This document shows, piece by piece, positions 2,995 through 24,510 of a stretch of 32,000 nucleotides of DNA (the stretch's first letter is position 1; each line of letters starts with the position of its first letter). Source of the stretch: Cuniculiplasma divulgatum. GTDB taxonomy: Archaea > Thermoplasmatota > Thermoplasmata > Thermoplasmatales > Thermoplasmataceae. Below the pieces are notes generated by a model that saw only the letters and a list, made by a program, of their open reading frames with translations, ran no database searches and was not told the origin of the DNA. The DNA is taken from positions 870,001 to 902,000 of the forward strand of contig NZ_LT671858.1 of the NCBI RefSeq assembly GCF_900083515.1, read 5' to 3'. The position numbers were made by a program, and so were the translations under genes.

Positions 2995-3164
2995 TTTTTT
3001 AATTCCTCCTTGTCGTTTGATTCTGCAACACTTAGCCAAGTCACAACTTTGGCAACAAAATCTTCCGCACTTACCTGATCTGGTTCGTTGCGAATTATCT
3101 CGCAGATAGTGCGTCCGTGGTGTAATGATGATATACGTTCTTTTAACGGTCTGATGTTAATCAT
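2991..3164 (-). CDS. Small hypothetical protein (57 aa), translationally coupled to prim-pol
   Basis: Hand translation gives MINIRPLKERISSLHHGRTICEIIRNEPDQVSAEDFVAKVVTWLSVAESNDKEELKK. GGAG lies about 10 nt upstream of the ATG at 3164, and the stop TGA overlaps the prim-pol ATG. It is below the track size cut-off and I recognise no family. Confidence 0.4.
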   Translation of the reverse strand: MINIRPLKERISSLHHGRTICEIIRNEPDQVSAEDFVAKVVTWLSVAESNDKEELKK

Positions 3165-6014: not shown

Positions 6015-7085
6015 TTAGATACCAGTTTCTTTCATTATTCTTTTGGTAAGATGGCAAATAAGCGGATCTGGACTGGCCGGTTTTCCTGACAAGATTGAGG
6101 TGTACGGACATCCCAAGCTACAGATATTCAGATATGAACATTCCATGCATGAGCCTTTCGTATACCTGGTAACAAGATCCATCCAATCTGAAAAAACAGG
6201 GGATAGATACAGTGTTTTAAGAGAATCAACATCTCCTATTGGTTCAGCATAAGGCGGCTCAGAAAGTGCAATGCATGGGGATATATTTCCGTTTGGATGT
6301 ATTACAATTTGCCCGTCGAATCCTCCACAGTATAATGATGTTCTTCCTTCGAAAATTGGCTTTATAAAATTGTCATAGAATTCGCCTGTCACTAACCTAT
6401 GTTTTTCAATGAGCTTCTTATTTACATCCATTATTGTATCGGTCAGTTGTTTTAAATTCATGTTTTTTAAGTAGTATGGATAATTTAAATTTACTGTTTT
6501 AACACGAAAATGATTCAACAAATATTCAATAGTGTGGAATAAATTATGTATATTATGTTCATCCAGAGTAACAGCGATTTGATAGTTAACGCTTTTAATT
6601 TCTAGAAGCCTAATCTTCGGCTCTATAAAATCATAAGAACCGTGTCCATTAGAGAACACCCTCATGGTGTCATTTGTTTCTTTGTCTCCATCTAAGGACA
6701 CCATTACAGAAATGTTTTCTGCCTTTATGAAATCTACGATTTTATCTGTTAACAGGGTTCCGTTTGTGGCCAACGCAAAATCAGCATCCAATCCAATTTC
6801 TTTGGTGTATGCAACAATTTTTTTAATTTTATCAAAATGTAAAATTGGTTCACCACCGTAGAATCTTATACTCAAGTGATGCTTTTCTTTTACGATGAGG
6901 TCAAGTAATTTGTAAATCCCATGTATATCCAATTCGGTACTATCTTTCGGCATAAAACAGTATTTACAACGTAGATTACAGTCGTGCCCGAGAATTACAT
7001 ACAGATAATCTCCAAAGTGATTAAATTCATTAAACTTGAATATACTATTTCCGGTTAAGTTATTTATATCCTTGTCGAACTGCAT
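6015..7085 (-). CDS. Radical SAM enzyme with C-terminal SPASM domain
   Basis: It has CxxxCxxC 'CNLRCKYC' and the SPASM motif 'CGGFDGQIVIHPNGNISPC' (C-x12-G-x4-C). This is followed by 'CMECSYLNICSLGC' (Cx2Cx5Cx3C) and a later Cys. It overlaps the upstream rSAM gene by 22 nt. Confidence 0.85.
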   Translation of the reverse strand: MQFDKDINNLTGNSIFKFNEFNHFGDYLYVILGHDCNLRCKYCFMPKDSTELDIHGIYKLLDLIVKEKHHLSIRFYGGEPILHFDKIKKIVAYTKEIGLDADFALATNGTLLTDKIVDFIKAENISVMVSLDGDKETNDTMRVFSNGHGSYDFIEPKIRLLEIKSVNYQIAVTLDEHNIHNLFHTIEYLLNHFRVKTVNLNYPYYLKNMNLKQLTDTIMDVNKKLIEKHRLVTGEFYDNFIKPIFEGRTSLYCGGFDGQIVIHPNGNISPCIALSEPPYAEPIGDVDSLKTLYLSPVFSDWMDLVTRYTKGSCMECSYLNICSLGCPYTSILSGKPASPDPLICHLTKRIMKETGI

Positions 7086-8092
7086 AAAGGATCACGTGCC
7101 CCCACATCACCGGTTCTGGCTAAGGCTACAGCTGGACATCCAACGCAAATATCTGAATAGGTACATCCCTCACATTTATTTCTGTTTTGAACTATTTTTC
7201 TCCATTCAATTGCAGTTTTTGAACCCCAAATGCACTCTAAGTCTGTGTTCAATAAATTATCTGTCGGTTCTTGAATAAAATTACAGGGTAGTATATTTCC
7301 AGCCGGGTCAATGAATATTCTATTCGAAAATATACCACAATTATGTCTATTTTCCCACGTTTTTCTCTGTTCTCGAATTAATGGTACTAATACATTAGGG
7401 TCAACGAGAAAAGAAAATGGGTAATTTAAAGAGAGGTTAAAATTCTTCTCGTGAGACCTATAGATATTATAAAACATTTGAGTGAAAGTTTCTAATTGAG
7501 ATGAAGTTATAAACAAATTTCTATCCAGTAACTTCCCGGCACCTATTGGTTCCAGAGTGGATATAGTCAAACCTTTAGCACCAATATCTTTACACAAATC
7601 AATCATTTTAGTCAAATGCTTATAATTATCGGATGTTAAATTCCAATTTATATCAAAATTAATATTTTCATTTTTCAAACTCCTTAAATTATAGATAGTT
7701 TTAGCAAAGGTGCCTTTTCCTCTCGTTCGGTCGTGAAATTCTTCATTATAACCATCCAGGCTCACTGATATATTACTTATCTTATCTGCGTATTTTTCTA
7801 CGACTTTTATTATTCTGTCCGAGAAAAGCGTTCCATTGCTGTTAATACTTATGTCAAAGTCAAGATCACCCAATTTTTTAAGAATATCTTGCCAGTCCTT
7901 TGCTAAAAAAAACTCTCCACCAGTTAGCCCAATTTCCTTTATATTATAGGAAGAGAGTCTTTCAGCAACTTTGAACTTCTGATGCGTACTCAACTCTTCA
8001 ACAGAATTTATATGATTACCCCTGTTGGCACAATAAATACATTTAAGATTGCATTTATTTGTAAAAGTCCAAGTTGCAACAGTAGGGAGCAT
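7064..8092 (-). CDS. Radical SAM enzyme with C-terminal SPASM-like domain
   Basis: It has 'CNLKCIYC' only 13 aa from the N-terminus. It also has 'CGIFSNRIFIDPAGNILPC' (C-x12-G-x4-C), 'CEGCTYSDICVGC' (Cx2Cx5Cx2C variant) and a terminal 'DPLCSS'. Confidence 0.85.
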   Translation of the reverse strand: MLPTVATWTFTNKCNLKCIYCANRGNHINSVEELSTHQKFKVAERLSSYNIKEIGLTGGEFFLAKDWQDILKKLGDLDFDISINSNGTLFSDRIIKVVEKYADKISNISVSLDGYNEEFHDRTRGKGTFAKTIYNLRSLKNENINFDINWNLTSDNYKHLTKMIDLCKDIGAKGLTISTLEPIGAGKLLDRNLFITSSQLETFTQMFYNIYRSHEKNFNLSLNYPFSFLVDPNVLVPLIREQRKTWENRHNCGIFSNRIFIDPAGNILPCNFIQEPTDNLLNTDLECIWGSKTAIEWRKIVQNRNKCEGCTYSDICVGCPAVALARTGDVGARDPLCSSTRI

Positions 8093-13066: not shown

Positions 13067-14785
13067 ATGACCCAGACAAATGACTTCTATAAAAGAAAAT
13101 TAAATGAAGCTGTTGAGAGAAACAGCAGGAATCAAAGTTCAAAGGAAAAAAAATGGAGAGATTATACGTTAGAACCCTGGAACAAGAAGACTAAATATAA
13201 GGAGAAGAAATATGTTAATTCGTCTAATATAAATATAAAAGACCTTTACACAAAAGAAGACGTTCCACAGAATGAGGAATACTTACTGGGCTTTCCGGGA
13301 GAATATCCCTTTACCAGAGGAGTCTACCCTAATATGTATCGTGGAAAATACTGGACCATGAGGATGTTTTCAGGATTTGGAACACCGGAAGATACGAATT
13401 CCAGACTAAAATATCTCATTTCACATGGGGAAACGGGACTTAGTATAGCTTTTGATATGCCTACTCTTTATGGATACGATTGCGATAATGTTAGGTCAGA
13501 GGGTGAGATTGGAAAATGCGGCGTAAATGTAACTTCACTGAAAGATATGGAAGTTGTATTTGATGGAATAGATCTTTCGAAAGTAACAACATCGATGACC
13601 ATAAATGCCCCTGCGGCAGTTCTTACTGCTATGTATTTTGCAATAGCTCAAAAAAAAGGAATTAGTCTTGATAAAATAGGTGGAACAGTACAGGCTGATA
13701 TACTTAAAGAATACATAGCACAAAAGGAATGGATTTATCCACCTGAAGCCCACTTGAGAATTATAAGGGATATGATGATTTACTGCACTGAAAATGCCCC
13801 AAAGTGGAATTATATAAGCATTTCTGGTTATCATATAAGGGAAGCGGGGGCAAGTGCCGTCCAGGAACTTGCATTCACACTTGCAGATGGTTTTTATTAC
13901 GTTGACATGGGTATAAAGGCAGGTCTCGATCCGAATAAATTTGCTCCAAGATTGTCCTTTTTCTTTAATTCTTCAATTAACTTCTTTGAGGAAATAGCAA
14001 AAATGAGAGCAGCCAGGAGAATATGGGCAACAGTACTAAAAGAGAAGTTTGGAGTAACAGATCCACGTGCTCAGATGCTTCGTTTTCACACTCAAACTTC
14101 AGGATATACATTAACCTGGCAGCAGCCCCTCAATAACATCATAAGGACAACTGTAGAGGCTATGGCAGCAGTGCTTGGGGGTACACAAAGTTTACATACA
14201 AATTCTTATGATGAAGCCATGGCACTACCATCTGAGGATGCAGTGAAGATAGCTCTTAGAACCCAACAGATTTTAGCCGAAGAAACTGGAATAACTGATA
14301 CAATAGATCCTCTAGCTGGATCTTATTATATGGAAGCCTTAACCAATAAGGTAGAAGAGGAAGCCTACAGGTACTTTGATAAGATAGAGTCTATGGGCGG
14401 TATCCTTAATGCAGTCAAAAATGGTTATATTCAAAGAGAGATAGCTGCAACCTCTTATAGAAGGCAAAAAAGACTCGAATCTGGAGAAGAAATAATGGTC
14501 GGTGTTAATAAATATGTTGAGGAAAATGAAAAGCCAATCAATATTCTAAAGATATCAAGGGAAGCCGAAAAGATCCAACTTGCGAGACTAAAAAAAGTTA
14601 AGGAACTAAGAAATGAGGATGAGGTAAGAAAGGCACTGGAAGAATTGAGGAATGCATTCAAGGATGAAAACAAAAATATCATGCCTTATCTTATAGAGGC
14701 TGCTAAGGAGTACGCCACAATCGAAGAAATATCAAATGTTGGGAGGGAAATATATGGTGGATGGAAAGAACCAGTCATTGTTTAA
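13067..14785 (+). CDS. Methylmalonyl-CoA mutase, large (catalytic, substrate-binding) subunit
   Basis: The canonical N-terminal motifs 'FPGEYPFTRGVYPNMYRGKYWTMRMFSGFGTPEDTN' and 'GETGLSIAFDMPTLYGYD' are present. The 572-aa protein lacks the B12 domain, which is the split archaeal form. Confidence 0.95.
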   Translation: MTQTNDFYKRKLNEAVERNSRNQSSKEKKWRDYTLEPWNKKTKYKEKKYVNSSNINIKDLYTKEDVPQNEEYLLGFPGEYPFTRGVYPNMYRGKYWTMRMFSGFGTPEDTNSRLKYLISHGETGLSIAFDMPTLYGYDCDNVRSEGEIGKCGVNVTSLKDMEVVFDGIDLSKVTTSMTINAPAAVLTAMYFAIAQKKGISLDKIGGTVQADILKEYIAQKEWIYPPEAHLRIIRDMMIYCTENAPKWNYISISGYHIREAGASAVQELAFTLADGFYYVDMGIKAGLDPNKFAPRLSFFFNSSINFFEEIAKMRAARRIWATVLKEKFGVTDPRAQMLRFHTQTSGYTLTWQQPLNNIIRTTVEAMAAVLGGTQSLHTNSYDEAMALPSEDAVKIALRTQQILAEETGITDTIDPLAGSYYMEALTNKVEEEAYRYFDKIESMGGILNAVKNGYIQREIAATSYRRQKRLESGEEIMVGVNKYVEENEKPINILKISREAEKIQLARLKKVKELRNEDEVRKALEELRNAFKDENKNIMPYLIEAAKEYATIEEISNVGREIYGGWKEPVIV

Positions 14786-15200
14786 GGACAAACCCATAAA
14801 AGTTCTGCTTGCAAAACCCGGGATTGATGGACATGACAGAGGAATACTTGTTCTAGCAAGGGCATTCAGAGATGCTGGGATGGAGGTACTGTATGCTGGA
14901 CTTCTTCCAACGCCAGAGGAGGTAATAGATACAGCTGTGAATGAGGATGTGGATGTGGTTGCCCTAAGTTTATTGAATGGTGCCCATATGACCGTTTTCA
15001 AAAAGGTTGCTGAAATAATGAAATCAAGGAATATAGACGACATAGCCCTCGTTGGTGGGGGAACCATTCCAGACGAAGATAAGCCTGAACTCGAAAAGAT
15101 GGGTATAACTGGTAACTACGGCCCCGGAACGCCCCTATCTGTCATCATAGATCATGTAACAAAAAGAGCCAGTGAAGCAAGGGAGCGAAAGATCAGGTGA
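14754..15200 (+). CDS. Methylmalonyl-CoA mutase, small B12-binding subunit
   Basis: It has the DxHxxG motif 'GIDGHDRG' and 'LVGGGTIP'. I prefer the ATG at 14754, preceded by GGGAGG, over the track start at 14736. It overlaps the large-subunit stop. Confidence 0.9.
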   Translation: MVDGKNQSLFKDKPIKVLLAKPGIDGHDRGILVLARAFRDAGMEVLYAGLLPTPEEVIDTAVNEDVDVVALSLLNGAHMTVFKKVAEIMKSRNIDDIALVGGGTIPDEDKPELEKMGITGNYGPGTPLSVIIDHVTKRASEARERKIR

Positions 15201-16149
15201 TTTCACGGATATAGACGATCTGATCAGAAGGATTAGGGAAGGAGATAAGCAGGCGATAGCAAGATCCATTTCACTGGTTGAGGGTGCAAATATGATCCTC
15301 AAAAAGGAACTTCTTACTAAGCTTTATCCCTACACAGGACACTCTCAGGTAGTTGGGATCACTGGTCCTCCAGGAATAGGAAAAAGTACTCTTATAGGAA
15401 ATTTATCCTCGCTAATAAAGAATTCTGGGAAATCTGTTGCGGTTTTGGCCATAGACGCATCCAGTCCGTACACTGGTGGCTCATTGCTTGGAAATAGAAT
15501 CAGGATGCAGGAACAACTCTGGGAAAATAAAATCTATATGAGGAGTCTTGCAAATAGGGGGACAAAGGGGGGACTTGCCGATTCGGCTCTTGGTTCAGTG
15601 AGTATTCTTGATGCATCAGGTTTTGATTATATAATTATAGAAACTGTGGGAGCTGGCCAAGCCGATCTGGACATAATGAATCTAGCTGATACAACTATTC
15701 TTATACTGGCTCCTGGACTCGGAGATCAGGTACAGGCTATTAAGGCTGGAATTATGGAAATAGCTGATATATTTGATATAAATAAGATGGATAGAGACGG
15801 ATCCTATTTTGCAATGAAAGACATCGAGGAGACCCTATCACTCGATGAGAATCGAAGCTTTCCAAGGGAGGTTGTAGGTTCCACAAATACAAACCTAGAA
15901 AGTTATAAAGAACTTTTTGCCGCCATTAACCGACATAGAAAATACCTTGAGGGTTCTGATCAACTAGGAAAAAAGAGGCTTGATTTTGGGTTGAAGTGGG
16001 TTCTGGAATCAGAACTAAGAGAGAAGCTTATAGAGCCCATTATAGAGAGATTTCATCAAAGGGAGAAAAATAAAAGAGGCAACTATTATCAAGATATAGA
16101 CCATTTAATATCGAATATTAACATAGAAGACCTGATGGAAAAAATTTAG
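15172..16149 (+). CDS. meaB: MeaB/ArgK-type G3E GTPase (mutase chaperone)
   Basis: It has the P-loop 'GPPGIGKST', 'ETVGAGQ' and the NKxD-like motif 'INKMD'. It sits immediately downstream of the mutase subunits. The GTG start overlaps the preceding gene. Confidence 0.9.
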   Translation: MKQGSERSGDFTDIDDLIRRIREGDKQAIARSISLVEGANMILKKELLTKLYPYTGHSQVVGITGPPGIGKSTLIGNLSSLIKNSGKSVAVLAIDASSPYTGGSLLGNRIRMQEQLWENKIYMRSLANRGTKGGLADSALGSVSILDASGFDYIIIETVGAGQADLDIMNLADTTILILAPGLGDQVQAIKAGIMEIADIFDINKMDRDGSYFAMKDIEETLSLDENRSFPREVVGSTNTNLESYKELFAAINRHRKYLEGSDQLGKKRLDFGLKWVLESELREKLIEPIIERFHQREKNKRGNYYQDIDHLISNINIEDLMEKI

Positions 16150-17207: not shown

Positions 17208-17597
17208 ATGACAACAATATATGGACCGTTGAAATTTATGGCTGATGAATTTATGAAGAACGTAAATGATAGAGCTAAGGAAGTTCTAACTTATCTATAC
17301 CCTCCAGTAAGGATGTATGAGGATAATGGAGAAATCGTGATTGAAGCTGACATGCCAGGATTTGATAAAAAAGATATTAAGGTAACATCAAGTAAGATGT
17401 CTATTGAGATATCCGCATCAAGAAAGTCTCCAGAGAATGTAAACATGTTGCTTGATCAGAGACCAGATAAAATTTGGAAATCAGTTAGGCTTCCAGTTGA
17501 ACTTGACCATGATGCGGCCATATCAGCAAAATATACCTCAGGGGTTCTTTACGTAAGAGCACCAATTAAAGGGTTAAAAACCGTTAAGATAGAGTAG
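17208..17597 (+). CDS. hsp20: Small heat-shock protein, Hsp20/alpha-crystallin family
   Basis: The alpha-crystallin domain pattern is present: 'YEDNGEIVIEADMPGFDKKDIKV', 'RLPVELD' and 'GVLYVRAPIK'. Confidence 0.9.
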   Translation: MTTIYGPLKFMADEFMKNVNDRAKEVLTYLYPPVRMYEDNGEIVIEADMPGFDKKDIKVTSSKMSIEISASRKSPENVNMLLDQRPDKIWKSVRLPVELDHDAAISAKYTSGVLYVRAPIKGLKTVKIE

Positions 17598-17676: not shown

Positions 17677-18057
17677 ATGGATTTAATGGGGATACTTACT
17701 GTTGTCAGTATGACAGCAACAAATTCAACAGGGTCCATTACTGTTTCGTCAGTTCTAAGCAATCCGTTAGTTGAGCTTGCATTAATATTCATAGATGGAT
17801 TGCTTTTTGGACTGGGTATAAAGAAAGGTGTTTGGTCTGTGATCCTTATAGTGATCGCGGTGTTCCTTTCTGAATACATCAACTTTTCAGTATTGCCTAA
17901 AGCTTCACTGTCAACCTTTTATGACGATGTAAAGTCTCACATAGAGTATATAATAACAAATATAAACAAGATAATTCCATTTTCCAATATAGGTGCAATT
18001 TCTATATCACTCATCTTGTTTATCGTGGGCTTTATTGTAGGCTACATGAAAGGATAA
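17677..18057 (+). CDS. Small integral membrane protein (about 3-4 TM), unknown function
   Basis: This 126-aa track ORF has hydrophobic stretches 'LALIFIDGLLFGLGI', 'WSVILIVIAVFL' and 'ISISLILFIVGFIVGY'. Confidence 0.5.
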   Translation: MDLMGILTVVSMTATNSTGSITVSSVLSNPLVELALIFIDGLLFGLGIKKGVWSVILIVIAVFLSEYINFSVLPKASLSTFYDDVKSHIEYIITNINKIIPFSNIGAISISLILFIVGFIVGYMKG

Positions 18058-18154
18058 AAAAAATTTAAACAAATTGTTCAACTATTGAAGATTTCCCTTT
18101 TCAATTAAACAAAGGAAAACCTTTTATTCTAATTTAAATTGATTTGATGATCAT

Positions 18155-18757
18155 ATGCCTTTATTTAATAGCAGAAAGCCGAAAGGCCTTGAAAGCCTTT
18201 CACCAGATGAAATTGAGAGCCTTATTCAGCAGACTAGAACAGAGATTTCCCTTATAGAAAAAGATAATGAGAGAAAACAGGAAAAGTTTAATTCTTTAAT
18301 GAAAGAGGGTAGTAAAGCTTCTGGATCCAAAAGAGTTCAAATTGCTCAGGAGCTTGAACTATTGGAAAGAAAGATCCATACCAACGAAAATCAGATATTG
18401 AACCACACTAAGAAAATTGAGTTAATGCAGGAGGTAAAGGAATCTAAAACTTCGGTTTCACCAAGCAGCGTGGATAATATTATTTCGAAAACCAATTCTA
18501 ACGCCATTAAAACCAACATACTTCAGTCAAAGACAAAGAATAAGGTAGCACTACAGAAAACCGATGATCTCTTGAATACAGTAAGAGACCTGCAAATAGA
18601 AGATGATCAGGGTGCATCTGTTATGGGAAGTAAATACATGGAGATGTTTAAGGAAATGGATAGAAATGATAATTCACTAAAACCAGGCAAGGTCAAAAAG
18701 ACAGAGACAGAAGAAGATAATGACGAGAATACAGAGAGTGATGTGAAGGGAGAGTGA
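18155..18757 (+). CDS. ESCRT-III/Snf7 (CdvB)-like coiled-coil protein 1
   Basis: It has a Snf7-like N-terminus 'MPLFNSRKPKG' and a heptad-rich alpha1/alpha2 region. Compare 'KRVQIAQELELLERKIHTNENQILNHTKKIELMQ' with CHMP4 'KRAALQALKRKKRYEKQL'. It has an acidic C-terminal tail and is 200 aa. The call rests on pattern similarity only. Confidence 0.55.
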   Translation: MPLFNSRKPKGLESLSPDEIESLIQQTRTEISLIEKDNERKQEKFNSLMKEGSKASGSKRVQIAQELELLERKIHTNENQILNHTKKIELMQEVKESKTSVSPSSVDNIISKTNSNAIKTNILQSKTKNKVALQKTDDLLNTVRDLQIEDDQGASVMGSKYMEMFKEMDRNDNSLKPGKVKKTETEEDNDENTESDVKGE

Positions 18758-19956
18758 ATTTATTGGATTCAGATTACCTGCAGATTGGTGGATTGAAAAA
18801 GCTTATTGCTGACGATATAAAAATTGAAACCAGTATGGAGGAAAAGGGAAATATCAGGGACAGTATCATATTATGCGAGAAGATTATCAACAACCTTCAT
18901 ATGTTAAAGAAACTTGATGGCAACAATCCATCCTATGATGCTCTCATAAAATCCTGGGATAAAAGAAAAACTGAGATCTTGAATAATAATCCTAAAACTT
19001 TGAAAAAACATGAAAGTAAGCAGGATAGTAAAAAGACTAGTAATGGACTCATTGGTCAGATGGAAAAGGAATTTAGAAGTAGAATCATGTCTCTCATAAG
19101 TGAGTCAAATGTAAAGTGGTCGGAAATCGGTGGATTGGAAGATCAAAAGGAAATTATCAAAGAAGCTGTTTTTTTTGCAATGGCTCAACCCGATCTTGAT
19201 GTTAAGGTTCCAAACCTTAGAAATATTTTGCTGTTTGGACCTCCTGGAACTGGTAAAACGACTATTGCAAAGGCAATCAGTTCAAATATTGATGCAACAT
19301 TCTTTAATGTGCCAGTGTCAGAACTCATCTCTCGATATGTTGGTGATTCAGAGAGAATAGTGTCCTCACTCTATACAGTTGCCAGGGAAAAAGCTCCTTC
19401 TGTAGTTTTTCTGGACGAAATTGAATCTCTCCTGAGACAGAGAGGTGACGGAAACAAAAATGCGGGTGCGGTTCTCCAGCAATTTTTATCTCAGCTTGAT
19501 GGATTTTCTACAGATGAAAGTTTTGTAATGACTGTTGCAGCAACTAATGTTCCATGGGAACTTGATCAGGCAATTCTTTCCAGATTTGAAAAAAGGATAT
19601 TCATAGGATTACCGGATGCGGAAACCAGAAAGAAAATAATTAGTATTCATACTACTGGCAAAGGATACAGGGTAGATGACTCGATAGACGATATAGTGCC
19701 CAATACCGAAGGTTTCTCCGGTCGAGATTTGTTTTATTTGTGTGCAGAGGCAATAAGGAATATGCTTAGAAGAACAAATAGGGTGATAATGGAAGATAAG
19801 GATAAGGTAATTCTTGGCTCTGAGAAGGTTACTTACAGGATTAATCCAATTACAAGGCAGGATTTTGAGGTTGCATTATCCAAGATTAAACCTGCAGTAA
19901 ATGAGGAAATGAGTAAGAAATATTACAAATGGAAGGAGGAATTTGCAAATAATTGA
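18754..19956 (+). CDS. Vps4/CdvC-like AAA+ ATPase (meiotic clade) with N-terminal helical, MIT-like region
   Basis: It has Walker A 'LLFGPPGTGKT' and Walker B 'VVFLDEIE'. Vps4-type 'ATNVPWELDQAILSRFEKRIFIGLPD' is present (compare Vps4 '[25 protein letters not shown]'). The C-terminal 'KYYKWKEEF' resembles the Vps4/katanin C-terminal helix. The GTG start forms a GTGA overlap with the upstream stop. Confidence 0.85.
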   Translation: MNLLDSDYLQIGGLKKLIADDIKIETSMEEKGNIRDSIILCEKIINNLHMLKKLDGNNPSYDALIKSWDKRKTEILNNNPKTLKKHESKQDSKKTSNGLIGQMEKEFRSRIMSLISESNVKWSEIGGLEDQKEIIKEAVFFAMAQPDLDVKVPNLRNILLFGPPGTGKTTIAKAISSNIDATFFNVPVSELISRYVGDSERIVSSLYTVAREKAPSVVFLDEIESLLRQRGDGNKNAGAVLQQFLSQLDGFSTDESFVMTVAATNVPWELDQAILSRFEKRIFIGLPDAETRKKIISIHTTGKGYRVDDSIDDIVPNTEGFSGRDLFYLCAEAIRNMLRRTNRVIMEDKDKVILGSEKVTYRINPITRQDFEVALSKIKPAVNEEMSKKYYKWKEEFANN

Positions 19957-20621
19957 TGATTTCTATGAAAAAAAATAATGATTTTCAGTCACTTATTGAA
20001 AGTCTGGCATATTATCGTGGAGATTCCAGCAAATCAGAGGGTTTCATGAAAAAGTTAGTTGGATTGTGGTCTTCATATGGAGACAAAAAATTCCTGGGAA
20101 AAAAGGGGAGTAAGATTTTAAATAAAAGTCTTCAGGAGTTATATGTTATTATGGATGTATCCCGGGAACATATTGTAGAACTTCAGGACCTCATTAACAG
20201 GATGAAAGATAATTCAGACGATATGAATCACATAAAGAAAATTAGGGCAACAGACTCTTTGAATGCTGAAATCGCAAAGTATAACCACATGGAAGAAAAA
20301 TATAAATTCATGTCAATGCTCCAATCAATTAATGAACTTATGTCTGAAAAAGATTCAAAATTCATGAGGAAGCTGGATAAAACCTTAAAGAATCGTCAGA
20401 TGATAAGGGAATTTCAAAACACAGTAAAGGAAGAAATGAATGATCATGGACGGATAATGGAAGATATGGATAATATTGAACTTTATTTCGAAACTATTAC
20501 TGAAAAATCTACCTCTAAAGTGGCTAGTAATGAAAATACTATTCATGAACCTCAAAAAACTATTCCCAAGAAGGATAGTGAAGAGAAAGATGATGAGGAC
20601 GAAAATCCAGAGGTGATATAA
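19953..20621 (+). CDS. Coiled-coil protein, divergent ESCRT-III-like 2
   Basis: This 222-aa predicted helical protein has 'NRQMIREFQNTVKEEMNDHGRIMEDMDNIE', which resembles CHMP2 'IQKIMMEFERQAEIMDMKEEMMNDAIDD'. It has an acidic tail (EEKDDEDENPEV). The likely start is the ATG at 19956, preceded by GGAAGGAGGA and forming a TGATG overlap. Confidence 0.45.
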   Translation: MMISMKKNNDFQSLIESLAYYRGDSSKSEGFMKKLVGLWSSYGDKKFLGKKGSKILNKSLQELYVIMDVSREHIVELQDLINRMKDNSDDMNHIKKIRATDSLNAEIAKYNHMEEKYKFMSMLQSINELMSEKDSKFMRKLDKTLKNRQMIREFQNTVKEEMNDHGRIMEDMDNIELYFETITEKSTSKVASNENTIHEPQKTIPKKDSEEKDDEDENPEVI

Positions 20622-20622
20622 T

Positions 20623-21222
20623 TTGAGCGTTTTCAACAGAAAATCTAAGGAAGAGCTTGAAGTTGAAACACAGATGAACATAAAGCTGCTTAAGAAGAAA
20701 GCAGAGGACTATGCTGGTAAATGTGATTCGATGGCACAAAAATATGATGCGCAAAAGGAAGCCGCGAGATCCATAGGAAATAAGAGTTTAGAGCAGGCTT
20801 TTGAGGAAAAGGCTAAAAATCTAAGAGTTCAGGCTTCGAAGATAAGATCATTTGTTCTTATAGTGGATGATATAGGCATGATGAAAGACCAGTCTGCATT
20901 GATGAACAGTTTTGCAGACACAATGAAGACTTATGTAAAGACCATAGGAAAAGGCCAGGCTAATGCCCAATGGATGTCCCAAATGGAATCTCAACTGGAT
21001 AAGGCAGTTGACGAAAGTGAGCGCGTTGGTGATCTTTTTGGTGGATTGCTCCAGGATGTGGGTTTAAATCTTAATTATGAACTAGATTCTATCGGGAGGG
21101 AAAAGAGTAACAATACGAACGCAAACGATAAGGAAAAGGTAGAGGATATAAATGTTGATGAAATGGAAAAGCGGCTAAGAGAAAAGTTAAAAGATTTAGA
21201 TAAGGTCGACACAAATGAATAA
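20623..21222 (+). CDS. ESCRT-III (CHMP/Vps2-24-like) protein 3 with C-terminal MIM1-like helix
   Basis: It has the N-terminus 'MSVFNRKSKEE', a coiled-coil core and the C-terminal 'VDEMEKRLREKLKDL'. The TTG start lies 1 nt after the upstream stop, with AGGTGA 7 nt upstream. Confidence 0.55.
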   Translation: MSVFNRKSKEELEVETQMNIKLLKKKAEDYAGKCDSMAQKYDAQKEAARSIGNKSLEQAFEEKAKNLRVQASKIRSFVLIVDDIGMMKDQSALMNSFADTMKTYVKTIGKGQANAQWMSQMESQLDKAVDESERVGDLFGGLLQDVGLNLNYELDSIGREKSNNTNANDKEKVEDINVDEMEKRLREKLKDLDKVDTNE

Positions 21223-22351
21223 CGGTCAGGATGCAGAATGCCTGAAAAAGTATAGGGAAAAGGTAGAAAGTATAATAAAATCAGATCAGCTTAAGAATAA
21301 AAAGATAGAGAACCTAAAATTATTAGCCACTGAGATATTAAATTCTTCCAAAAATAGAGAAAATGCTAAAAGAGTCGAGTTCCTAAAACTGGCAGATCTA
21401 TGTGTAAATATTATTGACAAACTTACCAATGAAATGCCTGAAAATGTTTCCAAAAGCAATTCATTAACCAAATATAAGGAAGTAATCATAGCAAATGACT
21501 CTTCAGACTATTTCAGAAGACTCCGCCCCGCCATAGCTTCAACTTCCTTTGATGATATTGCAGGTCTTTCAGATGTTAAAAAAATAGTAATGAATCAGAT
21601 AATCAAGGCTAGAGAGAATAAAGAAATAGCAAGAATGTATGGCATTACTGGAAGGAATATCCTCCTTTTTGGTCCTCCCGGAACAGGAAAAACAAGTATC
21701 GCTCAGGCAATTTCAAATAGGGTGCAATACCCAATGGTGACAATTACCCCTTCAGATATTCTTGATAATAAATTTGGTGAATTCGAGAAAAATATAAGAT
21801 CCCTCTTTCAGGGAGCAATAGCCAACAAACCGGTAATAATTTTCTTCGATGAATTCGATTCACTGGCTACAAGAAGAACGAATAGTAATTCGTCATACAT
21901 GAAAAGAGGAGTCCCCGAAATGCTACGTCAAATGACAGATTTAAGGAAGGAATCAGATGGACAAATCATGATAATAGCTGCTACCAATAATCCGTGGGAT
22001 ATTGATGATGCCATGTTAAACCCTGAAAGGTTCGATACAAAAATTTTCGTCCCTCCACCAGACGAAGCTTCAAGATCAGAATTATTCAGAACATTTCTAA
22101 GGGAACTCAAGGTATCAGATGCAATAGACTATGAAGAGCTTGGAAGAATTTCAGAAGGATATACAGGCGCTGACATAAAATACATCTGCAAGAGAGCGGC
22201 AGAAGAAGTATTTTCTCAGGTTATAGATAGCAATGAAATAAGAGAGATAAACCAGGAAGATCTTGTGGTGTCTATTGAACAGAGTTCCAGATCTATCACC
22301 GGTGATCTGCTATCCAAATACACCAAATTCAAGGAAAAATATCACCTTTAA
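21215..22351 (+). CDS. Second AAA+ ATPase with N-terminal helical (MIT-like) region
   Basis: It has Walker A 'LLFGPPGTGKT', Walker B 'IIFFDEFD' and the second region of homology 'ATNNPWDIDDAMLNPERFDTKIFVPPPD'. The C-terminal 'KYTKFKEKY' is also present. It overlaps the upstream gene by 8 nt. Confidence 0.85.
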   Translation: MNNGQDAECLKKYREKVESIIKSDQLKNKKIENLKLLATEILNSSKNRENAKRVEFLKLADLCVNIIDKLTNEMPENVSKSNSLTKYKEVIIANDSSDYFRRLRPAIASTSFDDIAGLSDVKKIVMNQIIKARENKEIARMYGITGRNILLFGPPGTGKTSIAQAISNRVQYPMVTITPSDILDNKFGEFEKNIRSLFQGAIANKPVIIFFDEFDSLATRRTNSNSSYMKRGVPEMLRQMTDLRKESDGQIMIIAATNNPWDIDDAMLNPERFDTKIFVPPPDEASRSELFRTFLRELKVSDAIDYEELGRISEGYTGADIKYICKRAAEEVFSQVIDSNEIREINQEDLVVSIEQSSRSITGDLLSKYTKFKEKYHL

Positions 22352-24510
22352 TTTTGTTTTTGTTGTTTTCTCCGAATAATAATAACTGCTGCAATTGCAG
22401 TTATAGCCAATACTCCAAAAGCGACCAAGGTAAATAATACAATATCGTATTCTGTTAATTTAGAAACCGATTTTTTTGGAATGTAATTTGAATAATAGAA
22501 TGTAGAAATTACCGAGATTGTACCCGATCTAAGATTGCTAACATAAAGGAAACCGTTAGAGTTGTCATATCCGATTCTGAAGGGAGAATTACCAACCTTA
22601 ACACTTCCGACTATTGCATTATTCGTGGAATTTACAACTATAGCTATATTTTGGTTCTCATCAGCAATATAAATATAGCTATTTTGTGGATTATAGCTTA
22701 TACCTTCCGGTCCAGATCCTACATAAATAGATTTAATAATGTTATTTGTTTTTGAACTTAAAACATCCAGGGTTCCTGAGATATAATTAATAACATATAA
22801 ATCGCCGTTATATGGTGAAAATAAAACACCCTGAGGTCCAGAACCAACACCGATGTTTTCTATTAAATTATTGTCAGATGGGTTTATTACTGAAAGATTG
22901 TTAGTAGCAAAGTTACCTGTGTAAATATATCCATTAGATTTATCGAATGTGACGGAAAGTGGACTTTTACCAACATTTAGCGTCGAGACGACTTTATTAT
23001 TAGTGGAGCTGATAACTGAAAGGGAATTAGATTTTTCATTTACCACGTAAAGTTCATGATTCACTGGATCATAGGCAGCAGCAGATGGTCCCATTCCGAC
23101 ATTTATTGATAAATAATCTTTTTGCGTAGAAGAATTGATCACTGAAATATTATTAGAGTCGTAATTTGTCACATATAAATTCTTGTTGTATCCATCATAG
23201 GTAATTGATGATGGCCCAACACCAACTCCAATTTTGGTTAATATCTTATTTCCAGCAGAATTTATCTCATAAATAAAGTTTGAAAATGCGTTAGAAACAT
23301 AATAAAAGCCATTATACGAATCATAGGTGCCACCTTGTGGACCCGAACCAGTATCTATTGAATAAATTACGGATTCAGTTAGCGGATTTATGATAGATAT
23401 ATTAGCCGTGTACTCATTCATAACGTATACTTCATGATTTATTGGATTGTATGTTACGCCGTAAGGATTTAATCCAACTGCGATTATTTTATTAATAAGA
23501 TATGTTGATGTGTTTATCGCATATACACTATCTGAGCAGAAGTTCGCCACATAAATTAACTTATTTTCAGGATTATATGAAATTCCAAATGGAGTGTTGC
23601 CAAGTTTTACTGTGTTCGATATTTCATCTGAAATGGTGCTAATTACGCTCATATTATTTGACCTTTCATTAACAACAAATAGACTGTGACCTGTGTCATC
23701 GAGAGCGAGTTTAGCAGGACCATCCCCAACACCAATAATAGTTCTTATTGTGAGATCTAAATTATAAACTGTCACAGTATTTTTGGCATAGTTGGTAACA
23801 TAAATCATACTGTTTAAAGGATCATATACTATGGCCGATGGCGAATTTGACGATATTGTATTCATTACATGATTCGTTGAGGTATTAATTACAGATATTG
23901 AATTTCCATATGAGTTGGCAACAAGCAGATAATTTTTTGAGGAAATATAAGCAAGAGAATCAGGCCCACCCCCAACACTTATGGATGAGGTAACTCTTTT
24001 CTCTTCCGTATTAATTACAGTTATATTAGATGACCCCTTGTTAGCAACATATAGATCGGAATTCATATAGTCAAAGGCTATGGCCTGTGGTGCATCGCCT
24101 ACATTAAACCAGTTGGCCGGTAAATTTGTTGTTGAATTAATTCCCAAAATATTATCTGTGCAGCAGTTTGTTACAAACATCTCTCTGTCAAGATTGTCAT
24201 AAACTGCACAGGTAGGTATCAACCCATTATTACTCTGCGAAGAATTACCCTTAATTAACTTATTACTAAATAAATCTAGAGTACAGTTCACCGTTCCGAT
24301 GTTTGTTGTATTTGGCTTGAGTCCGGAATTTACATGGGACAAATAATCACTAATCTTTTCATCCGAAATATCAGATTGAAATGATGGGAAACTTTCCTTG
24401 GGGTTTGTAGACTGATAGTGGATCAAGTTTGTGGGAGAAATGAAAATAATGATGAGAAAAAATACTACAAATCTGAGTATAATTCCTCTTTTATAAACTC
24501 TAATTTTCAT
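22348..24510 (-). CDS. Surface-exposed YVTN-family beta-propeller repeat protein with N-terminal signal/TM and C-terminal TM anchor
   Basis: About 14 repeats of ~42 aa each carry a YVTN-like core (FVTN, YVAN, LVAN, YVTN, FVVN, YVAN, YVMN, YVSN, YVTN, YVVN, YTGN, YVIN, YIAD, YVSN). It has the N-terminal 'ILRFVVFFLIIIFI' and the C-terminal 'VLFTLVAFGVLAITAIAAVIIIRRKQQKQN'. Confidence 0.85.
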   Translation of the reverse strand: MKIRVYKRGIILRFVVFFLIIIFISPTNLIHYQSTNPKESFPSFQSDISDEKISDYLSHVNSGLKPNTTNIGTVNCTLDLFSNKLIKGNSSQSNNGLIPTCAVYDNLDREMFVTNCCTDNILGINSTTNLPANWFNVGDAPQAIAFDYMNSDLYVANKGSSNITVINTEEKRVTSSISVGGGPDSLAYISSKNYLLVANSYGNSISVINTSTNHVMNTISSNSPSAIVYDPLNSMIYVTNYAKNTVTVYNLDLTIRTIIGVGDGPAKLALDDTGHSLFVVNERSNNMSVISTISDEISNTVKLGNTPFGISYNPENKLIYVANFCSDSVYAINTSTYLINKIIAVGLNPYGVTYNPINHEVYVMNEYTANISIINPLTESVIYSIDTGSGPQGGTYDSYNGFYYVSNAFSNFIYEINSAGNKILTKIGVGVGPSSITYDGYNKNLYVTNYDSNNISVINSSTQKDYLSINVGMGPSAAAYDPVNHELYVVNEKSNSLSVISSTNNKVVSTLNVGKSPLSVTFDKSNGYIYTGNFATNNLSVINPSDNNLIENIGVGSGPQGVLFSPYNGDLYVINYISGTLDVLSSKTNNIIKSIYVGSGPEGISYNPQNSYIYIADENQNIAIVVNSTNNAIVGSVKVGNSPFRIGYDNSNGFLYVSNLRSGTISVISTFYYSNYIPKKSVSKLTEYDIVLFTLVAFGVLAITAIAAVIIIRRKQQKQN

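Follow-up and report, generated by a model that had tools for sequence, protein, structure and literature searches.

In the Cdv system of Sulfolobales and Thaumarchaeota (CdvA-CdvB-CdvC), ESCRT-III-type subunits are encoded together with a Vps4-type ATPase that carries a MIT-like domain. Roles of this system in division and vesicle formation are established experimentally. Two further archaeal types are described by Makarova et al. (2024, mBio). The Main-clade ESCRT is represented by the Thermococcus peptonophilus plasmid NZ_CP014751, which encodes arCOG08177 and arCOG09748 proteins, two 'Snf7 family' proteins, a Ser/Thr kinase, Vps4, PP2C and an arCOG07402 ESCRT-III protein. The minimal ESCRT of the Thermoplasmata clade consists of an arCOG07400 beta-barrel protein, Vps4 and ESCRT-III. 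Cuniculiplasma divulgatum is named in the text of that paper among the carriers of Thermoplasmata-clade ESCRT, and four of the five genes considered here are entered in its Table S1 as Vps4 or ESCRT-III. Both ATPases also carry ESCRT-component annotation in the public genome. The CdvA-less ESCRT-III/Vps4 nature of the locus is thus not a discovery, and the first-pass annotation rated its novelty too high.

Gene order and evolutionary core

The window is the whole 32,000-nt stretch of C. divulgatum DNA that was analysed. Its ORF listing contains five plus-strand reading frames, all tightly overlapping or abutting, which correspond to CSP5_0930-0934 of strain S5. The locus is a real, conserved five-gene ESCRT-III/Vps4 operon of a wall-less acidophilic archaeon. 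The operon and the elements upstream of it are as follows (window positions).

17208..17597, + strand: Hsp20/alpha-crystallin small heat-shock protein, CSP5_0928 (Pfam HSP20 E=2.5e-11)
17677..18057, + strand: small multi-pass membrane protein, 126 aa, CSP5_0929 by order (conserved core about 100 aa)
18120..18139, + strand: TATA-like element CCTTTTATTCTAATTTAAAT, 16-35 nt upstream of the p1 start codon
18155-18757, + strand: p1, 200 aa, CSP5_0930, EQB69932
18754-19956, + strand: A1, 400 aa, CSP5_0931, EQB69933 cluster
19956-20621, + strand: p3, 221 aa (222 aa if from 19953), CSP5_0932, EQB69934 by order
20623-21222, + strand: p4, 199 aa, TTG start, CSP5_0933, EQB69935 by order
21215-22351, + strand: A2, 378 aa, CSP5_0934, EQB69936 cluster

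Direct reading of the sequence gives a GTGA overlap at 18754 (p1/A1), TGATG at 19954-19958 (A1/p3), TAA-T-TTG at 20619-20625 (p3/p4) and the 8-nt overlap ATGAATAA at 21215-21222 (p4/A2). Reading frames and junctions are all as first described: five co-directional genes with overlaps or a minimal gap. The annotated ATG at 19956 is taken as the p3 start because the 222-aa TTG version is absent from the protein collection. In RefSeq, A1 starts three codons downstream (397 aa). Among the window ORFs scanned there is no CdvA or PRC-barrel gene, in agreement with the earlier description of an ESCRT-III/Vps4-type operon that lacks CdvA in a wall-less Thermoplasmata archaeon also having FtsZ.

All eight related species-representative genomes recovered have these five genes in unchanged order and with junctions just as tight, an arrangement that is therefore not due to chance; the synteny proposed as a check is found at species level. 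Protein identity across these loci ranges from about 30% (p1, p3) up to 57-85% (A1). Housekeeping genes flank the operon and are kept across species, and beyond Cuniculiplasma-like genomes the operon itself is found only in a few relatives. Two more distant loci, L009 and L012, carry p1-A1-p3-p4 without A2. By this comparison of sequences, p1-A1-p3-p4 is the evolutionary core and A2 an add-on. In L009 and L012 alike, DO-GTPase genes adjoin the core.

The core resembles a stripped-down relative of the Main-clade system. The Main-clade Vps4 is nearest A1 (38% identity, 241 bits; 318 bits with the A1 HMM), and the two have in common an unusual 'LS-RF-x-KRI' SRH and a 'KW-EEF' C-terminus. The upstream 'Snf7 family' proteins are homologous to p1 and the downstream arCOG07402 protein to p4, so that the relative order (p1-like, Vps4, p4-like) is alike. 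In contrast, the Cuniculiplasma window has no counterpart of the Main-clade kinase, phosphatase, arCOG09748 or arCOG08177, and the host belongs to Thermoplasmata, a class not named among the paper's Main-clade orders (to which 'several other archaea' are added). From the Cdv system the operon differs in lacking CdvA, in having two ATPases and in its FtsZ-bearing host, and it is known here from genes and proteome; no winged-helix domain was detected on its ESCRT-III-like proteins. The core, the family links of p4 and p1, and the conserved Hsp20 and membrane-protein neighbours upstream are new, as is the finding that the two ATPases go back to separate ancient lineages and are not duplicates of each other.

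Descent of the two ATPases

A1 comprises a MIT-like N-terminus, a single AAA+ cassette and a Vps4_C helix (Pfam AAA 1.2e-37; Vps4_C 23.1 bits, cut-off 21.3), and the NCBIfam CdvC model covers its residues 28-398. Both stretches claimed for it earlier, SRFEKRIFIGLPD and KYYKWKEEF, are present. Among the matches listed, its SRH ('LS-RFEKRI') and C-terminal helix score best with katanin MEI-1 (86 bits, one domain), against 59 bits for Vps4 (4lgm) and 34-44 bits for VAT; p97 is not among the matches listed. Vps4_C and the katanin/Vps4-type SRH are shared with eukaryotic Vps4, but A1 retains just one of the paired SRH arginines. The N-terminal profile matches the solved CdvC MIT domains 2w2u (E=0.009), 2v6y and 4lcb, with E-values up to 0.33. 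The identification of the first ATPase as Vps4-type is upheld by a Vps4_C score over the Pfam threshold, the SRH and C-terminal helix, and these marginal MIT matches; judged by sequence, A1 is a genuine Vps4/meiotic-clade-type (Vps4/katanin-type) ATPase. Helical N-terminal regions at the place of the Vps4 MIT domain had been noted in both enzymes. MIT similarity is marginal for A1, whereas the N-terminus of A2 has no detectable MIT match.

Catalytic motifs are intact in both proteins, including Walker A/B and sensor 1 of A2 (Pfam AAA 6.6e-35, plus AAA_lid_3). Two substitutions in A2, each kept in 7 orthologues, set it apart from canonical Thermoplasmata-clade members: pore loop 1 reads DN[KR]FG versus SQWFG (Trp to Lys/Arg), and the SRH reads LNPERFD versus TRPGRFD (first arginine to Asn). 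In BLAST, A2 scores 192-246 bits with canonical Thermoplasmata Vps4 and 101-144 bits with A1. Its C-terminal half is nearest p97 D2 (66 bits), and in its SRH it follows the Cdc48/classic type.

A neighbour-joining tree (200 bootstraps, limited taxon sampling, without eukaryotic Vps4, CdvC or katanin) supplies the ATPase phylogeny that had been suggested. Both proteins fall with Vps4 lineages, and the Vps4-like sequences as a whole stand apart from Cdc48/FtsH (98% bootstrap). A1 is sister to the Main/Halo_FHA archaeal Vps4 group (98%), and A2 clusters with canonical Thermoplasmata Vps4 (100%), a placement matched by the leaf order of Table S1. A2 is a diverged paralogue of Thermoplasmata-clade Vps4 (arCOG01307) in which the Trp of the pore loop and one of the arginine fingers have been lost. 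Its host class is that of the minimal system; an arCOG07400-like gene, however, is absent from operon and window, A2 shares its operon with a different Vps4 lineage, and the genome's canonical copy (EQB68980, EQB68987) sits away from the operon.

The first-pass annotation supposed instead that a [filament subunit + ATPase] module had been duplicated in tandem, giving a two-ATPase machine with paralogous halves. The gene order does look repetitive at first sight (coiled-coil, ATPase, coiled-coil, coiled-coil, ATPase), and p1 and p4 have an N-terminal M-x-(L/V)-F-N-x-(R/K)-K in common, with a weak in-register alignment (E=0.011). The ATPase tree contradicts such an origin, since A1 and A2 are sisters in 0 of 200 bootstraps and belong to two different archaeal Vps4 lineages. 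They are about 29-30% identical, their SRH types are unlike (meiotic in A1, classic in A2), and the core of the more distant relatives does without A2. Duplication is therefore extremely improbable.

The helical subunits

A profile search of 1.84 billion proteins recovers relatives of p4 in 32 clusters. Pfam Snf7 is matched by 13 of 29 relatives (best 2.2e-8), and PspA_IM30 weakly by two. The AF2 model of p4 predicts a hairpin (H9-51/H54-86, pLDDT about 80) and four shorter helices, which with an acidic linker and a C-terminal amphipathic helix reproduce the layout of eukaryotic ESCRT-III. Its top six Foldseek matches are CHMP1B (E=1.6e-3), followed by CHMP2A/3 and S. islandicus CdvB (TM 0.53-0.60); overall confidence is low for this model (pLDDT 58.5) as for that of p3, and neither has a Foldseek match at E<=0.001. 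The conserved C-terminal helix, DEMEKRLREKLKDL, is MIM1-like. Its hydrophobic spacing (i, i+4, i+8, i+11) differs from what we take to be the MIM1 consensus. Beyond its own family, p4 is nearest the Main-clade arCOG07402 protein T_188. The earlier assignment of p4 as ESCRT-III-like with a MIM-like tail is borne out by the Snf7 matches, the CHMP-like fold model and the conserved motif, and p4 is a diverged Snf7-family ESCRT-III subunit.

All three helical proteins had been called ESCRT-III-like; this is direct for p4, indirect for p1 and not sustained for p3. For p1 and p3, direct comparison with Snf7/PspA profiles and structures yields nothing significant. p1 is a coiled-coil protein with an N-terminal MPLFNSRK motif and a conserved C-terminal KYMEMFKEMD helix. 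Searches of Pfam, PDB and Snf7 profiles give no direct match (best E=0.011, in register), but hhalign aligns p1 with the Main-clade proteins T_198/T_201/H_225 (arCOG09747/09749 'Snf7 family') at 95% probability (E=2.8e-8), to which it is evidently homologous. p1 is identical to EQB69932, for which Table S1 of Makarova et al. (2024) gives arCOG07402 (ESCRT-III/Snf7 family). p3 is absent from that table and has no Pfam, NCBIfam or PDB match; its positional orthologues are present in all eight loci and in L009 and L012. It is a helical protein with a conserved GLWxxYGxKKFLGKKG motif and an acidic tail ending DENPxVI / DGDVMxS. Its basic N-half and acidic C-half (pI 9.2/4.7) are a feature shared with p4 and eukaryotic ESCRT-III. 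The AF2 model (mean pLDDT 56) has a long hairpin (H48-82/H89-131) at 76-91, and its Foldseek matches are non-specific (LSD1 tower, Vipp1; E about 0.7-1.1). p3 is unclassified, with only a helical hairpin predicted.

PspA/Vipp1 (IM30), which acts in membrane stress and repair and forms the bacterial arm of the ESCRT-III superfamily, offers an analogy to the operon's proposed role in maintaining membranes under stress and to its pairing with stress and membrane genes. Membership is not supported: Vipp1 is among the Foldseek matches of p3 and p4 but weak (E about 0.6-1.2), and the Snf7 matches of p4 are much stronger. PspA systems are not known to work with an ATPase of the Vps4 type.

Upstream neighbours, expression and putative role

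Hsp20 keeps its position in seven of eight Cuniculiplasma-like loci (it was not found in L007) and in the distant L012. It lies outside the overlapping operon, behind a TATA-like promoter with a conserved TTTAAATAA box about 27 nt upstream. The membrane protein CSP5_0929 is the block's most conserved gene (62-87% identity in all loci, L012 included) and invariably lies immediately upstream of p1; it has no Pfam match. In L015/L016 a 47%-identical homologue stands beside an ESCRT-III gene; this arrangement, ThrA-membrane protein-ESCRT-III, is the one listed for Thermoplasma in Makarova Table S2 (arCOG04811 'Fun14 family'). Most of the distant homologues have no ESCRT neighbours. CSP5_0929 is a candidate membrane partner of the operon. 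As separate promoters serve Hsp20 and CSP5_0929, and distant homologues of the latter are mostly ESCRT-free, a functional link is only suggested. Upstream of p1, a TTTTATT/TTTATAT box is found at the same distance in all orthologous loci, and CCTTTTATTCTAATTTAAAT is probably the promoter at which the five-gene transcript starts.

In the published proteome, p1 (assigned by locus-tag order) is represented by 15 peptides (7 unique), A1 by 9 (2 unique), A2 by a single peptide, which is weak evidence, and Hsp20 by 16. A1 and A2 are of very low abundance; p3, p4 and CSP5_0929 are not among the entries listed from the proteome tables. The organism has a complete FtsZ machinery (PMC10936438), FtsZ is expressed in growing cells, and a canonical Vps4/ESCRT-III set, EQB68980 with EQB68987 (CSP5_1150 type), is encoded elsewhere in the genome. 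The expressed FtsZ, this third Vps4/ESCRT-III set and the Hsp20 and membrane-protein neighbours therefore point to membrane maintenance, repair or vesicle budding as the most likely role in this wall-less acidophile, rather than primary cytokinesis. The locus is probably an ESCRT-III/Vps4-type membrane-remodelling machine of composite origin, with a Main-clade-like core and such a maintenance, repair or budding role.

Alternatively, the operon might encode a, or the, cytokinesis machine of the kind known from the Sulfolobales Cdv system, with ESCRT-III filaments that narrow the division neck and are turned over by Vps4. Makarova et al. write of the reduced Thermoplasmata ESCRT that it 'seems likely to be involved in cell division', and ESCRT persists in the absence of FtsZ in Ferroplasma and Acidiplasma (Makarova et al. 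2024). The arCOG and genome annotations label the operon proteins 'cell division' proteins, and cargo-sorting components are absent, as in Cdv; ESCRT-0/I/II and ubiquitin-linked components of eukaryotes are missing here. Yet with FtsZ expressed during growth, both ATPases very scarce, a narrow distribution and another canonical set in the genome, a division role is unlikely.

The conserved Hsp20 adjacency, the p97 D2-like half of A2 and the fact that p1 and p3 are not demonstrably ESCRT-III would suit a cytosolic proteostasis module, two AAA+ unfoldases with coiled-coil adaptors and no relation to membranes. This is very unlikely given the Snf7 membership of p4, the Vps4-specific features of A1 and the ESCRT nature of the homologous Main-clade loci; moreover, CSP5_0929 is equally conserved beside the operon and Hsp20 has its own promoter. 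Least probable of the readings considered is an anti-virus or conflict system with Iet-type (IteA/IetA) ATPases, possibly with dynamin-like GTPases. PADLOC IetA and NCBIfam IteA models match both ATPases, and there are the DO-GTPase genes of L009 and L012. These matches, however, reflect generic AAA+ similarity and are weaker than those to CdvC/CDC48 models; p1, p3, p4, the membrane protein and Hsp20 match no defence model, the window holds neither an IetS-like protease partner nor a DO-GTPase, housekeeping flanks are conserved and p4 lacks phage relatives.

How the membrane-remodelling machine works, from filament assembly and MIT-MIM recognition to the parts played by A2, p3 and CSP5_0929 and the cellular process served, is a proposal, with these steps. 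(i) p4, probably p1 and possibly p3 would form filaments on the membrane's cytoplasmic side. (ii) The A1 hexamer would bind the conserved C-terminal helices of the filament subunits via its MIT-like N-terminal domain. (iii) With ATP, A1 would draw subunits through its pore, and the resulting filament turnover would lead to membrane constriction, scission or resealing. (iv) A2 would have joined as a second ATPase that came from the separate Vps4 lineage of Thermoplasmata, and this in the Cuniculiplasma lineage alone. Because of the changes in its pore loop and in one arginine finger, A2 is most likely a disassemblase with a specialised or modulatory task and not a redundant copy.

Operon architecture and conservation

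The locus consists of five co-directional genes (CSP5_0930 to CSP5_0934) encoding two AAA+ ATPases, A1 and A2, and three coiled-coil or helical proteins, p1, p3 and p4. The ORF listing places them as follows.

18155-18757, + strand: p1, helical protein
18754-19956, + strand: A1, first AAA+ ATPase
19953/19956-20621, + strand: p3, helical protein
20623-21222, + strand: p4, helical protein
21215-22351, + strand: A2, second AAA+ ATPase

The junctions described in the first-pass annotation (GTGA, TGATG, TAA-T-TTG and an 8-nt overlap) are all borne out by direct reading. The spacer before p1 is AT-rich, 97 nt long and carries a TATA-like box at 18120-18139. At the distal end, A2 is convergent with a minus-strand gene, and the stop codons of both overlap. 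Synteny, proposed earlier as a check, is retained: the p4 profile recovered eight species-representative genomes of relatives, and every one of them has this gene order and equally tight junctions. The arrangement is therefore not due to chance.

Systems of this kind are known, and the locus itself is largely catalogued. Makarova et al. 2024 (mBio, PMC10936438) define a Main clade and a Thermoplasmata clade of archaeal ESCRT, the latter comprising minimal systems of arCOG07400, Vps4 and ESCRT-III. Table S1 of that survey lists three Vps4 proteins (arCOG01307: EQB68980, EQB69933, EQB69936) and three ESCRT-III proteins (arCOG07402: EQB68987, EQB69932, EQB69935) for C. divulgatum. By exact-sequence look-up, p1 is EQB69932, and A1 and A2 are in 90% clusters containing EQB69933 and EQB69936, respectively. 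p3, EQB69934 by order, is absent from Table S1 (PMC10936438). Of the five operon genes, four therefore stand in the catalogue as ESCRT components. The main text of the survey leaves the operon architecture undiscussed (PMC10936438); the new details are a composite architecture drawn from two lineages, p3 as a component, substitutions in A2 and the linkage to a membrane protein.

Two distant loci were found by looking up the closest non-Cuniculiplasma relatives of p4. The first, L012 (GCA_052315375.1), encodes hsp20, the membrane protein, p1-like, A1-like (43% identity), p3-like and p4-like proteins and an extra ESCRT-III; A2 is absent. The second, L009, has p1-A1-p3-p4, with A1 at 49% identity, and a Thermoplasmata-type Snf7 and Vps4 pair and a 617-aa protein lie 3.5 kb upstream of this core. 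The gene content of these loci identifies p1-A1-p3-p4 as a conserved core. Thermoplasmata-clade components repeatedly adjoin it, and A2 is attached in the Cuniculiplasma group only.

Other genes accompany the distant cores. The 617-aa protein (L009:2098-3951), which follows the Snf7-Vps4 pair, is weakly similar to an arCOG09748-like protein of Thermococcus peptonophilus (BLAST E=2e-4, hhalign E=0.002), a likeness hinting that some Thermoplasmata may keep more Main-clade components than the window. Genes for DO-GTPase1/2 (Pfam, dynamin-outgroup) adjoin the core, with neighbours, at L009:4045-5418 (- strand) and L012:14497-16290 (- strand). They are absent from the window, and could represent another link to membrane remodelling or to conflict systems.

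The ATPases A1 and A2

Each ATPase contains one AAA+ cassette (Pfam AAA, 1.2e-37 for A1 and 6.6e-35 for A2), and Walker A, Walker B and sensor 1 are intact in 11 A1 and 7 A2 orthologues. A1 matches Vps4_C with 23.1 bits against a Pfam cut-off of 21.3, and the NCBIfam CdvC model aligns to its residues 28-398. The A1 SRH, 'LDQAILS--RFEKRIFIGLPD', is two residues shorter than the RPGRFD type. Per domain, the C-terminal half scores highest with katanin MEI-1 (86 bits, over a stretch that takes in the C-terminal helix), with further matches to KATNAL1 (81.5 bits) and Vps4 chain 4lgm (59 bits), and the alignment with katanin and Vps4 chains includes 'rrfekrifiplpd'. VAT domains score 34-44 bits among the alignments listed, which do not include p97. 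A1 was originally read as Vps4-like, and the Vps4_C and katanin/Vps4 matches confirm that it has the C-terminal helix and the meiotic-clade SRH (RRF-x-KRI) of Vps4/CdvC. An N-terminal profile of A1 alone aligns with the CdvC MIT domain 4lcb at E=0.16; with Main-clade N-termini added, the profile reaches E=0.009 (2w2u), 0.17 (2v6y) and 0.33 (4lcb). The similarity is marginal and would be consistent with an archaeal CdvC MIT domain.

A2 is of a different type. Its SRH, 'LNPERFDTKI', follows the classic RPGRFD pattern, and the nearest match of its C-terminal half is p97/Cdc48 D2 (66 bits). Neither katanin nor Vps4 chains are among the best 60 matches of this half, and Vps4_C is not among the 25 best Pfam matches of A2. 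The protein thus lacks the combination of meiotic-clade SRH and C-terminal helix that marks Vps4/CdvC; arCOG01307 and the published Vps4 tree nonetheless include it (PMC10936438). No MIT signal was found in its N-terminus by PDB comparison, and hhalign against A1 and canonical Vps4 N-termini was non-significant. Judged against canonical Thermoplasmata Vps4 from four loci (L007, L009, L015 and L016), the pore-loop-1 Trp is replaced (SQWFG to DN[K/R]FG), as is the first SRH arginine (TRPGRFD to LNPERFD), each in 7/7 orthologues.

BLAST scores separate three groups: canonical Thermoplasmata Vps4 proteins match each other at 314-357 bits, A2 matches them at 192-246 bits and A1 matches either at 101-150 bits. 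In a tblastn search of plasmids, the best match of A1 is the Vps4 of a T. peptonophilus plasmid (38% identity, 241 bits), which scores 318 bits with the A1 HMM versus 143 with the A2 HMM and has the motifs 'LS-RF-x-KRI' and 'KW-EEF' in common with A1. Table S2 of the survey gives the T. peptonophilus locus as arCOG08177, arCOG09748, arCOG09747 and arCOG09749 ('Snf7 family'), a Ser/Thr kinase, Vps4, PP2C and arCOG07402 (PMC10936438), which is the gene set of the Main clade. A neighbour-joining tree (266 columns, 200 bootstraps) was built from a limited sample without PAN, eukaryotic Vps4, CdvC or katanin. With this small sampling, A1 is sister to, and not nested within, a group made up of haloarchaeal and T. 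peptonophilus (Main) Vps4 proteins (98% bootstrap), and A2 groups with canonical Thermoplasmata Vps4 (100%). All Vps4-like proteins (A1, A2, canonical Thermoplasmata, Main/Halo) are separated from Cdc48 D1, Cdc48 D2 and FtsH at 98%, so that the suggested phylogenetic check sets both operon ATPases apart from Cdc48 and FtsH. The grouping agrees with the leaf order of the published tree, in which EQB69936 stands beside EQB68980 among Thermoplasmata and EQB69933 is the final leaf, preceded by Thermococci, Halobacteria and the two Acidianus paralogues ARM76971 and WP_052349468 (PMC10936438).

By these comparisons the operon joins two old Vps4 lineages. The first-pass annotation had proposed a duplicated module of filament subunit plus ATPase. 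That proposal is unsupported, because A1 and A2 fall into different lineages by tree, BLAST, HMM and published leaf order, and an origin by tandem duplication is contradicted by the 0% bootstrap for a grouping of A1 with A2.

Helical subunits and upstream neighbours

The evidence for ESCRT-III is most extensive for p4. A profile search of 1.84 billion representatives recovered 32 clusters only. Pfam and NCBIfam scans of p4 itself gave no match, and a PDB search with its profile returned nothing meaningful. Among its aligned relatives, 13 of 29 match Pfam Snf7 PF03357 (best 2.2e-8), p4 aligns to this Snf7-matching family at E=8e-51, and two of the 29 match PF04012 (PspA/IM30) at E of at least 0.002. 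By sequence and profile, a Snf7 assignment is reached for p4 only, and transitively. The AlphaFold model has a long hairpin (H9-51/H54-86, pLDDT ~80) followed by four shorter helices, in the order of the ESCRT-III fold (hairpin alpha1-alpha2, alpha3-alpha5, C-terminal helix), but at a low mean pLDDT of 58.5. CHMP1B filaments take the first six places among the Foldseek matches (best E=1.6e-3); CHMP2A/3 and S. islandicus CdvB are also found (TM 0.53-0.60). A variable acidic linker precedes a family C-terminal helix, [DE]-L-D-[KR]-R-I-x-x-G-L-[KR]-K-[IL], a putative MIT-interacting motif. We regard p4 as a diverged ESCRT-III.

p1 (12 orthologues) has no direct Pfam, NCBIfam or PDB match and none in the Snf7-profile search; hhalign against a Snf7-like profile gives E=0.011-0.2, the best alignment being in register and non-significant. 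Over residues 1-125, p1 is homologous to T. peptonophilus and Halomicrobium proteins encoded upstream of Vps4 (95% probability, E=2.8e-8). The T. peptonophilus homologues are arCOG09747/09749 'Snf7 family', and p1 itself is listed as arCOG07402 (PMC10936438). For p3, no Pfam, NCBIfam or PDB match was found across nine orthologues; hhalign against the Snf7-like profile gives E=0.06-0.3, HMM scores are below zero, and Snf7 membership is not reached by sequence or profile. The confident part of its AlphaFold model, built from a 4-sequence alignment, is a hairpin (H48-82/H89-131, pLDDT 76-91); the rest is poor, and the Foldseek matches are generic hairpins, Vipp1 among them (E ~0.7-1.1). Conserved C-terminal helices are present in p1 (KYMEMFKEMD) and p3 (MDNIELYFET). 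A basic N-terminal half and an acidic C-terminal half are typical of ESCRT-III; p3 and p4 have this polarity (pI ~9.2 versus 4.6), which is less clear in p1. Profile-profile comparisons of p1, p3 and p4 with each other and with the Snf7-like profile, from shallow and enlarged alignments, were non-significant (best p1 versus p4, E=0.011). The earlier view of three ESCRT-III-like proteins thus holds for p4, through its Snf7 relatives and Foldseek matches, may extend to p1 by homology to 'Snf7 family' proteins in place of a direct Snf7 match, and is not supported for p3. Membership of the PspA/Vipp1 family is not supported for p1, p3 or p4: none of the three matches PF04012, and Foldseek matches of the p3 and p4 models to Vipp1 are at E=0.6-1.2.

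The operon differs from each known system with which it was compared. The Cdv system (CdvABC) has CdvA, whereas matches to PF18822 or a PRC barrel are absent from the operon proteins and the other window ORFs scanned, as the initial reading of a CdvA-less locus had it. The Main clade is represented by A1, with its 98% placement, and by p1 and p4, homologous to Snf7-family proteins of the T. peptonophilus locus; its accessory set of arCOG08177, arCOG09748, kinase and PP2C is missing from the window, where tblastn with the T. peptonophilus proteins found nothing better than E=0.37. All Main-clade systems are said to encode arCOG09748 (wH protein) and arCOG08177 (inactive Cas2 + TBP) (PMC10936438). 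A2 falls in the Vps4 lineage of the Thermoplasmata-clade minimal systems (100%). Those systems have an arCOG07400 beta-barrel coupled to Vps4, whereas here it is p4 that overlaps the start of A2; tblastn of the window with the arCOG07400-like proteins of L015 and L016 gave no match.

Two genes upstream of the operon recur with it.

17208-17597: Hsp20 (CSP5_0928), upstream of the operon in 7/8 Cuniculiplasma-like loci and in L012
17677-18057: small 3-TM membrane protein (CSP5_0929 by order), upstream of the operon in 8/8 Cuniculiplasma-like loci and in L012

Hsp20, the membrane protein and the operon each have their own conserved TATA-like box, and within the block conservation is highest for the membrane-protein gene. 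A sequence, 'TTTTCACTT', upstream of both hsp20 and the membrane-protein gene was considered as a shared regulatory motif and is attributed to chance, since it is not conserved in orthologous loci. A copy of the membrane protein with 47% identity (L015:7056-7364, L016:7330-7638) lies between ThrA and ESCRT-III; in Thermoplasma the same position is occupied by arCOG04811 'Fun14 family' in Table S2 (PMC10936438). Equating the membrane protein with arCOG04811 is a matter of position and of 47% identity to the L015 copy only, and Pfam gives no FUN14 match. The survey does not flag the membrane protein as an ESCRT component (PMC10936438). Most distant homologues are without adjoining ESCRT genes, and a metagenome scan with the membrane protein for divergent operons returned only near-identical operons and unlinked homologues. 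Gene context suggests that the membrane protein may be functionally linked to the ESCRT operon; it could act as a membrane anchor or recruiter.

Expression, proposed role and wider context

Proteome data for C. divulgatum S5 are available in the supplements of Bargiela et al. 2020 (PMC7285479). Hsp20 (CSP5_0928) is represented by 16 peptides and p1 (CSP5_0930 by locus order) by 15, seven of them unique, at an abundance similar to that of Hsp20. A1 (CSP5_0931, UniProt A0A1N5UET8) has nine peptides, two unique, at ~50-fold lower abundance, and A2 (CSP5_0934, A0A1N5UF02) has one; CSP5_0929, 0932 and 0933 are not among the entries listed. FtsZ (CSP5_1965) and another ESCRT-III (CSP5_1150) are also expressed (PMC7285479).

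The best-supported interpretation is that the operon encodes a membrane-remodelling machine of the ESCRT-III/Vps4 kind, in which A1 would turn over Snf7-type subunits, recognising their C-terminal helices by an MIT domain. A2 may be a specialised or modulatory second ATPase. We infer a role in membrane maintenance, repair or budding and favour it over primary cytokinesis, because the FtsZ machinery is complete, with FtsZ expressed, another canonical Vps4/ESCRT-III set is present, a stress chaperone and a membrane protein adjoin the operon, and the host is a wall-less acidophile. Cytokinesis is possible but less likely. A function in cytosolic proteostasis is contradicted by the assignments of p4 and A1. 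A defence system could be proposed from the DO-GTPase genes flanking the two distant loci; PADLOC matches are to generic AAA+ only, and p4 has no phage relatives, both of which count against it. A link to the published four-gene 'SNARE-like' operon of Metallosphaera (PMC11329633) was also considered, and no connection to the locus was found.

A fuller joint reading of the membrane-remodelling machine, possible but doubtful as a whole, would make the locus an undescribed archaeal ESCRT subtype. In it, a minimal, kinase-free Main-clade derivative, p1-A1-p3-p4, with p3 as a lineage-specific third helical subunit, would have been joined by a Cuniculiplasma-captured Thermoplasmata-clade Vps4 whose pore loop and arginine finger are altered. 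The two ATPases, not orthologous to each other, would both serve one filament system, anchored or recruited by the Fun14-like membrane protein, in repair or budding of the naked membrane of a wall-less acidophile.

To our knowledge, archaeal ESCRT outside Sulfolobales and Asgard has had no experimental characterisation, and we know of no genetic system for C. divulgatum. Here, one cultivable wall-less species has two ESCRT lineages, partly fused in a translationally coupled operon, alongside FtsZ. The locus is a compact test case for the role of a minimal ESCRT-III/Vps4 set when it is not the division machine, for substrate sharing between two non-orthologous Vps4 ATPases, and for small membrane proteins as recruiters in place of CdvA or ESCRT-I/II. 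What the 'reduced' Thermoplasmata systems do is explicitly posed as a question by the 2024 survey (PMC10936438). The locus offers moderate practical value, with small, expressible proteins of which p1 and A1 are produced in culture.

Several further features were observed in the window. At its left edge (1-3039), G+C is 0.40-0.44 versus ~0.34 and a Prim-Pol ORF is present (1978-3039, - strand, E=2.3e-23); the higher G+C and the bifunctional primase-polymerase suggest that an integrated element, a plasmid or a virus-like one, has its border here. Two overlapping radical-SAM genes, one with a SPASM domain (6015-8092, - strand), adjoin an MFS transporter (4781-6013), a layout reminiscent of peptide-maturation clusters. 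An ordinary metabolic cluster upstream (13067-16149) encodes the methylmalonyl-CoA mutase large subunit, its B12-binding subunit and the MeaB GTPase, and most related genomes keep MeaB in synteny with the ESCRT block. The gene convergent with A2 (22348-24510, - strand) encodes a 720-aa YncE/NHL-type beta-propeller repeat protein with hydrophobic N- and C-terminal segments, probably a surface protein; L001 and L002 also have it downstream of their operon, at 54-64% identity.
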